From assembly GCA_964016885.1 (NCBI GenBank), contig OZ024741.1, positions 66,960,001 to 67,024,000 on the forward strand: a stretch of DNA of 64,000 nucleotides, in the 5' to 3' direction. This document shows positions 11,989 to 44,275 of this stretch, in pieces. Both the position numbers and the translations under genes were made by a program. The stretch comes from Eledone cirrhosa. Taxonomy: Eukaryota. A model generated the notes under the pieces. The model was not told where the DNA came from and searched no databases. It saw only the letters and a program-made list of their open reading frames with translations. Position 1 is the first letter of the stretch, and every line of letters starts with the position of its first letter.

Positions 11989-12172
11989 GAACAAGTAAGA
12001 CCCCGACGGCTGAGCTCAAGCCGTTTCGACGGCTAATTCTGGAATTAGCCGTCGAAACGGCTTGAGCTCAGCCGTCGGGGTCTTATTTGTTCCTATTACC
12101 CACTCTACTACCCTAAGTATTGAGTACTTTGGTGCGTTATGGTCCACCTGGTTCCTTACCACATTTCCTTCG
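11989..12172. mobile_element. Fold-back element in (TA)n: 104-bp palindrome carrying HHR 3' halves, plus tail; relatives at ~23860-23965, 27785-27945 and 45185-45235
   Basis: 11989-12092 is self-complementary; each arm reads GAAACGGC-ttgagctca-GCCGTC (stem III plus GUC triplet); no CTGANGA present. Confidence 0.75.
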
Positions 12173-12249
12173 ATATATATATATATATATATATATATAT
12201 AATAAAATGACAGGAGGCAGGACTTGTGTAAATCCTTGAAAGGTTTATT

Positions 12250-12307
12250 ATACTATGATCATTTCAATGACCGGGTTCCGTATGAATCCGGTGATATCAT
12301 CAGGTAT
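12250..12307 (-). ncRNA. Minimal type I hammerhead ribozyme; a truncated fold-back copy of the same family lies at 12472-12572
   Basis: Minus strand: atac CTGATGA t-atcaccgg...ccggtcat-t GAAA t-gatc-a TA gtat. Confidence 0.8.
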
Positions 12308-13683
12308 TCGAAATACAATAAATGAATGTAATAGGTAAAATCCATGGGGCTGAAAATCAAAAATCAAAGACAGGAGGACGACCGACCATCTAGCATCTTC
12401 CACTTTAGCCACAGCTCTATCCAGTGGTCAACCTTCAAACCCGAATATATATATATATATATATATATTATAATGAAATGACAGGAGGCTGGATTTGTGT
12501 AAATCCTTGAAAGGTTTATTATACTATGATCATTTCATTTACACAAATCCAGCCTCCTGTCATTTCATTATAATATTTAACTCCGTAATAGCACCACCAA
12601 CTACAAAAACAAAGACGGTTGAACTGCTTTACGTTGAGTACTCTCTATATTATTGCATTACGATTGACCATACGGAATAGACCAGCTCTATACAGTGGTG
12701 AACCTCAAACCTGAATAAATATATATATATATATATATATATATATATATATATATATATGAATCTCGAGTTTAATCGGGGGTAACCATAGTAAGTAAGG
12801 TACTCAATACACATTAGTAGAGTGAATACAACAAATTAAATATAGAAATGGCTCCTACAGGACTAGAACTGTTTCTTCTGATGATTTCCTTCGAACTTCA
12901 ATAACATTCTAATTTAAGTGTGTTACACGATTTCCCTGATTTTTACGAAGCGCTCTTGGGATAATGTTCAATAAAAGGGTGGTATGCTCATGCGCGGAGA
13001 TGTTATAAAATTGAATGAAGAGTCTTAAAAACAAAAAGAGAAGTAACCATCAACTGCTACGAGGGTTCGAACCTCGTATCTCCTAGACGGTATCTGGGAG
13101 TTACTAGGAGTGGGAGTTACTAAGAGGTTCGATTCCTGCTAGTACCCGATAGCAACATCTCTTTCAGTTTTCACCCTATATTATAATCTATGTTTAGCAT
13201 GAGCACACAACTCTTTATACTACACACATACACGCACATATCTCTCTCTCTCTCTCTCTCTCTCTCTCTCTCTCTCTCTCTCTCTCTCTCTCTCTCTCTC
13301 TCCCCCCTCCCGCTCTCTCTCTCTCTATCTATCTATCTCTCTTTCTCTCTCTCTCTATATATATATATAACTGTACATACTCACTGAGAAGTCAAATCAC
13401 GCAAACATTTGTGCAACTGTGTCTGTATGTATGTATGTATGTATGTATGTATGCATGTATGTATGTATGCATGTATGCATGTATGTATGTACATACACAA
13501 TTGCATGAAATCCTATCTGATACAATGATTAAGAGAGTTAATTAGTTTAGAATATTGATTTATATACATATATATATATATATATATATATATATATGGT
13601 ACGTTATTCCGGGTTGAATCGGAGGTAACCACAGTAAGTAAGGTACTCAATACATTGCAGAGTATAACAGTTTTAATATAGAT

Positions 13684-13791
13684 GAGATTCAACAGGACTA
13701 GAACTGTTTCATTCTTTAGAAATCACCAGGAATCTCTGATGATTTCTGATGATTTCTAAAGAATGAAACAGTTCTAGTCCTGTAGAATCTC
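13684..13791. ncRNA. Back-to-back hammerhead pair in a fold-back element (13600-13805); family relics at ~12765-12890, 42668-42725, 44945-44990 and 47297-47341
   Basis: Plus 13741-13791: gattt CTGATGA tttc-taaa-gaat GAA ACAG-ttctagtc-CTGT A gaatc. Minus 13684-13736: same fold with a CTGGTGA core and 7-bp stem I gagattc/gaatctc. Confidence 0.75.
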
Positions 13792-40500: not shown

Positions 40501-42371
40501 GCAACGCTTTAGATCAATTATTTACTTTGTCAATGAGTCTTATTTGGGCTATCATTCTCTCTCGACAATAAACCACAATAAATTACAATCAACCACAGAA
40601 TCAGTGCTCTACGCATTATAGATTATTGTATACAGACCACCGCCACTGAAAGCCTATACAACTAAACGAAAATACTCAAGATGAAAAGTTATATGTACAT
40701 GCGTGTGACGCAATTTCTTTCCACAGCAAGCTTCAACCCACACGGTCTCTCTGCCACTACATGAGAAATCCCATCCAAAACCACATACTTATACAATACC
40801 TCGCACTATTATAATCACGTCCGAAAAACATCACTCAGCCAATACGAATAAAAATAAAGATGCATGTCAGCTGGAGACATGTTAAAATCGGGAAGGCGTA
40901 TTAGAGAGTGGCAACTTGTCATTCAGCCGACAATTAGTTGTTGTTCTTCTTCTCTGGCCATTTATTCGTGGGAAGAGTCCTCAAACACTCCTTCCAGTGG
41001 GTTCTGTTTTGTCAGGAGTAACCGTCTTCAATTGATCCGGATTGATCCCCAAACAGCAACTTCAAATGTGAAAATTATGATTTAAAAAAAAAAAAAAAAC
41101 GAATTTCAACTCTCATTTGGTTTCTGAAATTCTCGCGGATGAAAGTTAAATCTAAGAAGAAATTTCAAGTAATTATAAACCTTCATTCTGATAGATTTCG
41201 TTTTCAATTCCAACATTATTTTGTATAGAATTGCAAACATACCAATTAGATTGAACAAAAATGTTAAAAAGTACAATGATGAAGTAAAATTTCTATTTTT
41301 CGTTATTTTTTAAAGTCTAAAAAGAAAACAAGAAATAGAGAGGAATATTAAAATTCTGTGATGTTGACTCGCCATTATTCATTAATTGTCAACAGAGGCA
41401 AGGATGAACAGATTGCTAATTATAGAGAAAGCAAATTAATTTCCTCCTTCTGTTTCTCATTCTCTATCTCTCCCCCTACGCGCATACACACACACACACA
41501 CACACACACACACACACACACACACACATATATATATATGTGATGTGCATGTATGTGTGTGTGTATATATGTATATATAGTATATATAATGGAAAACCAA
41601 AATCAGCAATCGCAAAACATCAGACGTATACACGAAATTCGTTATTATTGCTTTTGTCCCGGACAAATACTTATGGTAGCAATCAATTAGAGGATGTTAC
41701 AGCATTCGTTAGCTCTGCTGTCATTGATGATTAAATTAGACCATCCTCAATAAAGAGACGATCTATGCTAAGGAGGAAAACAATCAAAGTTTTCGGTGGT
41801 TCCAGTCATCAGTCTGCAACCTTGCTGGGGCATCACGTTAATTTTGTCGATCATATCGACCCTAGGAGTTATAATTTTAAGAGTGCTAGACAAACAGTCA
41901 GCTGAATATGCAGTGAGGCACTCAAAAAGAAATTCGTAAGGCAGATGGGTACAACGGTCATTTAGACAGGATGATGGATATATGGGCAGTCTAACATTTA
42001 GACAGAGTATATCGAAAATCGAAGAGGCATCTTGTCATGAAAACAAGCAGAAAATAATTAAACTAATATATTAGACAAGCAGAGAGACAAGCGGATAATC
42101 AACTTGGAAGTCTCTAAATGTATGCGCACCATGCTAGAAACAAGAGCCATATGCCCGAGAAAATTGTCATAAACATAAAGACAATGCATTGTCATAGCTA
42201 AATCGTCTTTGGGCATAGACAGTTGCTGAACACCAAGAAATTCTAAACATTCAAATAGAATAAACTTCACAGAGATAAATATACCTTGATAACCAGACAT
42301 ATATCTAATGATGTTAATTTAGATACATGGCAGACGATTTGTAAGAAGGGGAAAGTCGATTACATCTACTC

Positions 42372-42515
42372 TGGTATATGACCGGTACTTTATTTTATTC
42401 CCTCTGGAAGGATAAAAGGCAAAGTTGACTTAGGCGGAATTTGAACTCAGAACGTAAAAGACTCTAATTAAATGGTGAATAGCATTTTGTCAGACGCTCT
42501 GACGATTCTGTCAAT
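42372..42515 (-). mobile_element. Diverged family A SINE
   Basis: ggtactttatttta..aaggataaaaggcaaagttgac..ggcggaatttgaactcag. Confidence 0.7.
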
Positions 42516-42810
42516 CAACTACCTTTGTGTATTTTGGGCACATAGTTGGATACATTCATAGACAGACGCAGGAGCAAATATATATAGTATACAGACAAAG
42601 GAATAGGTGATTTGAACAGCTGACGAGTTAGGCATATTGTTTGATAGATATACATGAAATCATTAGGAATGCTCTGATGCCTTAATACGAATAAAACAGG
42701 TCTAGTCTTGTAGAAGTCATTTCTAAAATATATATATATATATATATATATATATATATATATATATATATATATATATATATATATATATATATATATA
42801 TATATATATA

Positions 42811-44275
42811 TAGAAGAAGTTAATATGCCCGTGGGTACTAAGTACCCCCGGAAATACATAGGTTGTCTATGATTTAAGGTTGTTCTATGGTATCAATTTG
42901 ACATACCAGAACTATAATATTAATATAAGCAGAAGAAGCAAAATTCAACCAATTTTTTTAAATAAATTAAAAAATATAATTTAAATATTTACCTATTCAT
43001 TTGGCCCTTACCGATCGGTTTCGCCTTGTAAAACACTAGAGATCCAATGGATTTCTAATCGAAAATCAAGGCTCATCAGAGAAGCATTTTCCTTTCCTAG
43101 GGCTAAAGACCCAGGAACGATAAAATATATTGTTATCTGCCAGCTAGCACATATCCAAAAGGCCGAAAAATGACCTGTACGTGAACTACCCGAGGTGAAA
43201 GCGGGAAAAACATAGACGTGTTGTCTATCTCGTTACTAAAAATAGCAGCTAAATAGAAACAACAGATTTGTTCTCAACATAACGGAGGGTAATAGAAGAA
43301 GTTAATATGCCCGTGGGTACTAAGTACCCCCGGAAATACATAGGTTGTCTATGATTTAAGGTTGTTCTATGGTATCAATTTGACATACCAGAACTATAAT
43401 ATTAATATAAGCAGAACAAGCAAAATTCAACCAATTTTTTTAAATGAATTAAAAAATATAATTTAAATATTTACCTATTCATTTGGCCCTTACCGATCGG
43501 TTTCGCCTTGTAAAACACTAGAGATCCAATGGATTTCTAATGGAAAATCAAATTGGATCTGTGCTAGCTGGCAGATAACAATATATTTTATCGTTCCTGG
43601 GTCTTTAACCCTAGGAAAGGAAAATGCTTCTCTGATGAGCCTTGATTTTCCATTAGAAATCCATTGGATCTCTAGTGTTTTACAAGGCGAAACCGATCGG
43701 TAAGGGCCGAATGAATAGGTAAATATTTAAAGTATATTTTTTAATTTATTTTAAAAAATTGGTTGAATTTTGCTTGTTCTGCTTATATTAATATTATAGT
43801 TCTGGTATGTCAAATTGATACCATAGAACAAACTTAAATCATAGACAACCTTTGTATTTCCGGGGGTACTTAGTACCCACGGGCATATTAACTTCTTCTA
43901 TTACTCTCCGTTATGTTGAGAACAAATCTGTTGTTTCTATTTAGCTGCTATTTTTAGTAACGAGATAGACAACACGTCTATGTTTTTCCCGCTTTCACCT
44001 CGGGTAGTTCACGTACAGGTCATTTTTCGGCCTTTTGGATCTGTGCTAGCTGGCAGATAACAATATATTTTATCGTTCCTGGGTCTTTAGCCCTAGGAAA
44101 GGAAAATGCTTCTCTGATGAGCCTTGATTTTCCATTAGAAATCCATTGGATCTCTAGTGTTTTACAAGGCGAAACCGATCGGTAAGGGCCAAATGAATAG
44201 GTAAATATTTAAATTATATTTTTTAATTTATTTAAAAAAATTGGTTGAATTTTGCTTGTTCTGCTTATATTAATA
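42811..44275. mobile_element. Retrozyme-like element: 482-bp HHR-containing unit, ~1.5 tandem copies on each strand, joined as a fold-back within (TA)n
   Basis: Period 482 (42812/43294; 43632/44114). HHR ttct CTGATGA gccttg...caaggc GAA ACCG-at-CGGT A aggg at 43005-43083(-), 43628-43706(+) and 44110-44188(+); junction ~43551; no ORF. Confidence 0.85.

Follow-up and report, generated by a model that had tools for sequence, protein, structure and literature searches.

How are head-to-head copies of Penelope-like elements (PLEs) made, and why do so many of their joints fall inside a hammerhead ribozyme (HHR)? The question is raised by a 64,000-nucleotide (nt) stretch of the Eledone cirrhosa genome (contig OZ024741.1, positions 66,960,001 to 67,024,000; hereafter the window, in which positions are counted from the first letter). 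A first-pass annotation described palindromes with one arm starting within the HHR and proposed that reverse transcriptase (RT) stalls or switches template at the folded ribozyme. Every palindrome that it cited exists by self-alignment, with arms 72–99% identical and, in each case, the 3′ ends of the element pointing outward and the 5′ ends meeting. The palindromes are genuine PLE insertions, a known architecture. We give a probability of about 55% to the reading that these head-to-head insertions stem from two separately primed complementary DNAs (cDNAs), their junctions lying in the HHR mainly through its closeness to the start sites of reverse transcription. As it stands, the window presents a known architecture with a positional bias that is partly explained. 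How the tandem and inverted ends of PLEs form, and what role their HHRs play, are named as open questions in PMC8557442.

The evidence for two cDNAs is the geometry of the arms, for which signed positions (− or +) are relative to the HHR cleavage site. Each family has two classes of 3′ end: +9 to +18 and +96 to +99 in family F1, +53 and +202 in F2, +15 to +22 and +81 to +89 in F3, and +88 and +197 in a 482-nt tandem unit. Eight pairs are verified by a second copy, and in every one of them the 3′ sites of the two arms differ. The description of these structures as fold-back elements, taken as simple copying of one arm from the other, fails in six of the eight (the 482-nt pair included), where neither arm contains the other; two pairs are wholly non-overlapping. 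Fold-back can copy no more than the first strand contains, so the six non-containing pairs need two cDNAs or a later one-sided deletion. Across the 14 two-arm pairs of HHR families, placing the second arm within the first likewise fails in six and is compatible with the other eight. In the asymmetric verified pairs, the arm started upstream reaches further 5′ in six of six. This asymmetry is a more useful mechanistic clue than the ribozyme-stall claim, and a spacer on the upstream-started arm is a simple genome-wide discriminator between self-priming and two-cDNA priming.

The HHR lies 10–50 nt upstream of the first start site in families F1, F2, F3 and F12, so that short cDNAs are bound to end in or near it. 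In Drosophila virilis Penelope, an intron ending at helix I begins 46 nt after the start site (PMC2377424, PMC4209133), and the transcript, once spliced, would start 46 nt ahead of helix I. One cDNA would be primed on each end of the cut target, itself AT-rich, with two start sites on the RNA that are specific to the family, and the two would be joined 5′ end to 5′ end; both arms would be RNA-primed. The downstream-started cDNA may be terminated early, whether by running into the hybrid of first cDNA and RNA or because processivity is low, and in F1 and F3 the RNA itself may begin at or in the HHR, in which case the ends would be run-offs. We prefer two priming events because the PAc protein (Poseidon of Anolis), which in purified form cuts and extends both target strands and has two internal RT start sites, is predicted to be dimeric (PMC11167929). 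Inverted arms also arise in two PLEs in which no HHR was found, which we count in favour of this reading, yet both fit fold-back. The structures on which these statements rest are as follows.

11989..12172: F1 head-to-head pair in which just the HHR 3′ half occurs; junction 12039-12041; minus arm −34..+16, plus arm −37..+96.
12201..12447: F2 pair; minus arm with an intact HHR (core 12303, cut 12254) to about −136; short plus-strand tail piece +160..+202; arms non-overlapping and no end in the HHR.
12472..12718: F2 pair; junction 12536/12537; minus arm ending 1 nt 5′ of GAAA, plus arm +21..+202.
12767..12900: F3 minus arm ending at GAAA (−19), then a short plus-strand core fragment.
13610..13806: F3 pair; junction 13735/13736 at the HHR 5′ edge (−44, −38), with a 10-nt duplication; core 13746, cut 13784.
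13858..14543: inverted copy of family Fa; junction about 14355 in the end of the open reading frame (ORF; −345), outside the HHR; 25-nt sense stub, then plus arm +49..+212.
16838..17380: F5 pair; minus arm with an intact HHR (core 17020) to −213, plus arm from the core at 17201/17202.
18612..18748, minus strand: single F12 copy whose stem II is long and whose 5′ end lies about 7 nt upstream of the HHR.
18768..22795, minus strand: near full-length PLE; HHRs 18932 and 22561; RT and endonuclease (EN) frames 22301-20145; 5′ end −291.
23859..23962: F1 pair with non-overlapping arms, +25..+97 (minus) and −17..+9 (plus); junction 23934.
24484..26611: remnant of an inverted PLE whose spacer holds a GIY-YIG-like frame; junction 26042; no HHR found.
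26720..27138: F9 palindrome centred on 26975, with an intact HHR on each strand (26904 minus, 27046 plus); arm ends −123.
27185..27323: pair showing just the 3′ half of an HHR-like motif; joined at 27248, with ends at −13 and about +5.
27779..27945: F1 pair in which neither arm contains the other; minus arm end −31, plus arm end −15.
28060..31760, plus strand: broken Fa PLE with weak RVT_1, weak C-terminal GIY-YIG and an HHR-like motif at 31508-31551; reference for the read test.
35013..35224: F12 pair; plus arm from 35148 in stem II (−28), minus arm ending just upstream of the core.
37066..37931: F13 pair, 99% alike; minus arm with an intact HHR (core 37427) to −235, plus arm from stem II at 37593.
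42655..42727: F3 plus arm from −39; the short inverted piece ahead of it ends at helix I.
42812..44272: both arms carry a retrozyme-like tandem unit of 482 nt (minus arm 740 nt, plus arm 720 nt); HHRs 43079, 43632 and 44114; junction 43551-43553; neither arm contains the other.
46779..47221: F15 palindrome with its centre (47003) about 34 nt upstream of the HHR.
60408..63667: large inverted PLE whose junction (62837/62838) separates RT from EN coding sequence; no HHR found.

The window holds 18 head-to-head structures: 16 of HHR families and two, with junctions 26042 and 62837, in which a relaxed scan found no HHR. At least one end lies in the HHR in 12 of the 16, or in 12 of 18 when those two are included. 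Junctions in or at the ribozyme thus stand in most of the cases first cited, and further supporting junctions had been overlooked (23934, about 27826, 12879, 42676), but counter-examples at 14355, about 12390, 26042 and 62837 had been left out; that at 14355 is in the end of an ORF, that at 62837 lies beyond the range first described, and that at 26042 has no HHR found. Placements changed in detail. At 12040, the arm ends (−34, −37) are as described, but their assignment to the apex of stem II is an assumption, since just the HHR 3′ half is present in all seven arms of the family. The end at 12536 does lie 1 nt before GAAA (−11); its partner starts at +21, outside the HHR. The end at 27248 likewise lies 2 nt before GAAA (−13), in a copy that shows just the HHR 3′ half and whose partner starts at about +4/+5. 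A junction placed at 13741, just before the core, is truly at 13735/13736, one arm ending at the helix I 5′ edge (−44) and the other starting at the core (−38). The end at 35148 is inside a long HHR, but its ATGA aligns with a segment internal to stem II of the 18612 copy and not with the core. Those at 17201 (inside the core, −30, with a partner arm running to −213) and at 37593 (−47) and 43551 (−60), both inside stem II with partners ending outside, are as reported, as are the two exceptions, 26975 and 47003, whose centres lie upstream of intact HHRs.

These placements depend on the HHR inventory. A scan for motif and stems, which called an HHR type I on the CUGAnGA and GAAA boxes, a UH site and helices I–III, predicts complete ribozymes at 12303, 13746, 17020, 18932, 22561, 23730, 26904, 27046, 37427, 43079, 43632 and 44114, the last two, 43632 and 44114, being spaced 482 nt apart. 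Those at 31512, 33608, 36279, 44654 and 46962 come from a looser scan or from inspection by eye, and the F1 arms and 27248 have just the GAAA-helix III-UH half. Rfam at E ≤ 1 returned no hammerhead family among the 150 of 226 matches listed, and those listed were driven by microsatellites and hairpins.

Whether ends fall in the HHR more often than expected was addressed by a census of 43 arms in the window, their 3′ and 5′ ends taken relative to the cleavage site and arm lengths permuted as the null. Several arm ends are approximate, the HHR 5′ edges are assumed for F1 and the 27248 family, and the samples are small; inverted copies of a repeat like a short interspersed nuclear element (SINE) at 48897-49275 and 55234-55834 and hairpins at 5215, 23073 and 31820, whose PLE nature was not shown, were excluded. 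The uniform expectation proposed at first was rejected as too lenient, because the HHR is only 10–50 nt from a 3′ start site in several families. Against the permutation null there is still an excess: 17 of 43 5′ ends in the HHR vs 7.9 expected (P=0.0003), and 14 of 30 vs 6.0 for inverted arms alone (P=0.0006). The entire excess is due to F1 (the 12040 type) and F3 (the 13735 type). Once these are removed, the counts are 6/30 vs 4.5 expected (P=0.27) for all arms and 6/20 vs 3.7 (P=0.14) for inverted arms. In families with known upstream sequence, 4 of 20 arms reaching the HHR stop there, and 5 of the 16 that pass it stop in the next equal stretch.

An excess of ends in the HHR holds for the window taken together, but RT stalling at the folded ribozyme is not supported as a general rule, the excess being confined to two families and the stop rate not being raised. 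[quoted passage not shown] We are more doubtful of the stall in itself, by which a folded HHR or the base of stem II stops or dislodges RT, so that one cDNA ends there as the junction, in at least some families. In its favour, beyond the 17 of 43 ends, are those lying 0–2 nt 5′ of GAAA at 12536, 27248 and 12879, together with a metagenome arm (locus L025) that ends within GAAA. Such a register is expected of a pause at a stem, although here the interval was chosen post hoc. The HHR is also the most stable 50-nt segment in two of eight arms and the second in a third, and contig depth steps down at the Fa HHR (see below). The stall is opposed by the lack of excess outside F1 and F3, by stop rates that are equal within and beyond the HHR in both window and metagenome, and by partner arms that read through the same HHR, as in the 17201, 37593 and 43551 structures. 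Predicted folds of nine HHR segments give z of −2.0 to +1.4 against shuffles, tertiary and protein-assisted folding being outside the calculation, and are not better than shuffles save at 43625-43710; in the family whose ends cluster at the core, z is +0.85. The predictions thus suggest no reason for a special barrier at the HHR. The F3 ends, moreover, cluster at its 5′ edge, where copying would already have opened helix I. If ribozyme stops are real, the HHR would have a structural function that does not depend on cleavage.

In F1 and F3, 4 of 7 F1 ends cluster between −31 and −37 and 5 of 6 F3 ends between −34 and −44, two F1 loci that are about 80% alike end on the same base (−37), and no copy of either family in the window extends past the HHR. 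These ends would fit a fixed template end better than scattered stalls. For these two families, whose ends cluster tightly, a stall may still hold. A pattern search for F3 in metagenome contigs found nothing.

Self-priming accounts for the palindromes in another way: a single cDNA would fold back to prime synthesis of its own second strand, and asymmetric deletions at the palindrome centre would afterwards have moved the apparent junctions. The model was proposed from such palindromes in PMC3846280, and it suits the near-perfect centres at 12040, 13735, 26975 and 47003, the 25-nt stub at 14356 and the private variants common to both arms of one locus. We consider it unlikely here. The second arm ends at a conserved family site and not randomly, and in each of the six verified pairs that are asymmetric, it is the arm ruled out as the first that bears the unpaired spacer, an outcome for which random-sided deletion would have a chance of about 1/64.

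It is more improbable still that the F1 and F3 junctions are not independent, a few master copies already inverted at the HHR having been amplified. Three F3 sense arms (13735, 42677, 12879) do start in one register, each with the same non-family T ahead of the core; among F1 loci, two have −37 as their end, and 27826 and 45236 are both followed by a 6-nt piece of stem III. The arms within a locus, however, are 95–98% alike vs about 80% between loci, which indicates that junctions were made anew from each subfamily unless arms were homogenised, and the F1 junction registers differ. Fold-back chimeras are a familiar class of sequencing or assembly artefact, and can be set aside here as a negligible prospect, since the arms differ by 1–28%, end at family-specific sites and carry tails, opposite-strand joints of the same family (Fa) occur in raw reads, and similar structures exist in contigs of other organisms.

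Reads and metagenome loci extended these comparisons beyond the window. The read test used 31161-31760 of family Fa as its reference. Contig depth in organism C, summed across the Fa HHR, falls from 1.81 to 1.30 to 0.96 million and then declines more slowly, whereas raw-read depth independent of the internal enzyme site is flat across the HHR (892, 1023, 1009). Reads from restriction-site-associated DNA (run X8) were dominated by the enzyme site at 31414, and their minus-first column alone was used. Large, heterogeneous loose ends are found at 31300 (21,518 reads) and at 31600-31601 (27,544 reads), both outside the HHR; none of the 12 organism C loose-end rows listed is in it (a further 1253 fall outside this listing), nor is any of the eight sides of four opposite-strand joints among the 15 listed (a further 201 fall outside). 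The genome-wide read evidence on this family is ambiguous. A depth spike with loose ends at the HHR edges in run X2 was rejected as a sign of truncation and read as homology limited to the ribozyme. In that run, from another species, the HHR segment 31501-31549 alone is shared at high depth, as would fit a conserved ribozyme with diverged flanks. One Fa subfamily, present in very high numbers, is sharply bounded near 31300 and 31600 and flanked by heterogeneous AT-rich sequence, resembling a solo pseudo-long terminal repeat (pLTR) of 300 nt; a copy at 63672-63885 has the same 5′ point and stops at the HHR core.

A generic intact-HHR pattern retrieved 118 metagenome loci from 6 of the 64 parts into which the collection is divided. 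Loci with GC up to 47%, 51 in number, were kept, and the 16 with an upstream inverted partner were scored, the ends at 11 of these being approximate since they were taken from BLAST ranges or by eye. Of the 13 partner arms that reach the HHR, three end within it; ten pass it, and three of these end in the next 41 nt. At one locus (L028), the inverted partner begins exactly at the first base after the predicted cut, as a cleaved RNA template would give; the partner is 100% alike over 76 nt at the contig start and the junction is about 438 nt upstream of the HHR cut, in a single case that may be an assembly artefact. One AT-rich HHR family comprises 16 loci (L010, L016, L017, L022, L025, L051, L062, L074, L078, L083, L085, L086, L094, L108, L111 and L114), with inverted partner pieces at 10 of them and internal inverted segments at several.

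Several of these observations weigh against two separately primed cDNAs joined near their start sites. In F1 and F3 together, 11 of 13 ends are inside the HHR and one more is at its edge, and an exponential null expects 1.4–3.9 where 10 of 13 were counted on older coordinates of the 13735 pair; the fixed RNA 5′ end that would account for them is a postulate. The three ends just 5′ of GAAA (12536, 27248, 12879) fit a pause. The near-perfect palindromes at 12040, 13735, 26975 and 47003 and the sense stub at 14356 fit fold-back, and later one-sided deletion at palindrome centres could mimic non-containment. A step fitted to the organism C contig depth amounts to −0.64 ± 0.22 in ln units, a fall of about half, and rests on two downstream bins in a repeat-rich (AACC-rich) stretch. 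Finally, the metagenome set was chosen on one intact HHR, which makes pairs with both ends inside the ribozyme impossible.

The identity of the elements follows from their coding and terminal features. The window is animal-type DNA (36% GC, (TA)n-rich) with several broken RT frames and many short HHR-bearing pieces. The Fa frame matches RVT_1 (E=2e-4) and GIY-YIG (E=0.0025), both weakly and below the Pfam cut-offs, and has the single ORF with RT and C-terminal GIY-YIG of EN+ PLEs; its N-terminal part includes an Asn/Thr-rich low-complexity stretch (28320-28900) that recalls the N-rich inserts of rotifer Penelope (PMC3846280). The frames of the 18768-22795 copy have no Pfam match, score 0.98 to unnamed eukaryote clusters and match two other remnants by tblastn. 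A PDB search with the RT returned nothing relevant. This copy has direct pLTRs of 399 nt, 99% alike, so that both direct and inverted pLTRs of EN+ PLEs are represented, and the one-sided tail is found in the eight pairs with differing, second-copy-checked 3′ ends.

Much of this has precedent. PMC8557442 documents insertions whose pLTR is inverted and 5′-truncated, as the first-pass annotation stated, together with tails on one side and (TA)n targeting, and PMC3846280 documents junction palindromes of head-to-head copies. The window resembles these EN+ PLEs in its head-to-head copies, junction palindromes, one-end tails, partial tandems and (TA)n targets, and in having RT and GIY-YIG frames and an HHR in the terminal repeat. 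It differs in that many insertions are two short arms without an ORF and in that tails are 60–150 nt vs 30–40 nt. In the parts of both accounts available to us, neither a mapping of junctions onto the HHR nor one of the spacer-bearing arm appears. A search by title and opening text found no publication that maps PLE inversion junctions onto the HHR, older PLE-structure reviews, the Terminon paper and supplements (e.g. of PMC11167929) being outside its coverage; PMC3681739 contributed nothing further. That the template must have been uncleaved or re-ligated is correct, yet the argument applies to every copy that retains sequence 5′ of the cut, and it is not new: an uncleaved template has been demonstrated in vitro (PMC11167929), and a circular RNA has been proposed (PMC4209133). 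Palindromic junctions, too, are already published. With PAc, RNA that has not been processed serves as the main substrate, and mutation of the HHR does not abolish insertion (PMC11167929). The window shares with PAc two start sites that explain the tail and an AT-rich target, whereas inverted products are not described in the available part of that account, and the two-site pattern here is read from genomic arms alone.

Dual HHRs on opposite strands 100–700 bp apart, and circular templates, have been reported (PMC4209133), and retrozymes have been described as PLE derivatives (10.64898/2026.07.22.740005). Like the non-LTR (long terminal repeat) retrozymes of the latter work, the 482-nt and 227-nt HHR repeats of the window are non-coding, more-than-unit tandems; unlike them, the 482-nt array forms two inverted arms, and it is known here from DNA alone. 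Both of its arms (42812-44272) hold more than one unit, as expected of a circular or multimeric template, with no derived variants common to the units. The 227-nt HHR unit at 23570-23830 is retrozyme-like, with a 34-nt terminal direct repeat.

A further parallel is twin priming of LINE-1 (long interspersed element 1), in which two primers on one target break yield an inverted 5′ part. Two pairs in the window are likewise non-overlapping; unlike LINE-1 products, most pairs overlap as inverted duplications, and the second priming site is fixed per family.

Other repeats surround these elements. A family at 6880-7620 and 23969-24358 has a partial tandem structure and adjoins (TA)n, with no HHR found in it. 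Palindromes at 23073-23280, 23503-23566, 31820-32010 and 5215-5348, for which no HHR or PLE homology was shown, include some with nested hairpins or microsatellite cores. The SINE-like repeat is abundant, at 48897-49275, 55234-55834 and about ten further sites; some copies form inverted pairs, and one is inserted in a PLE tail at 35901-36087.

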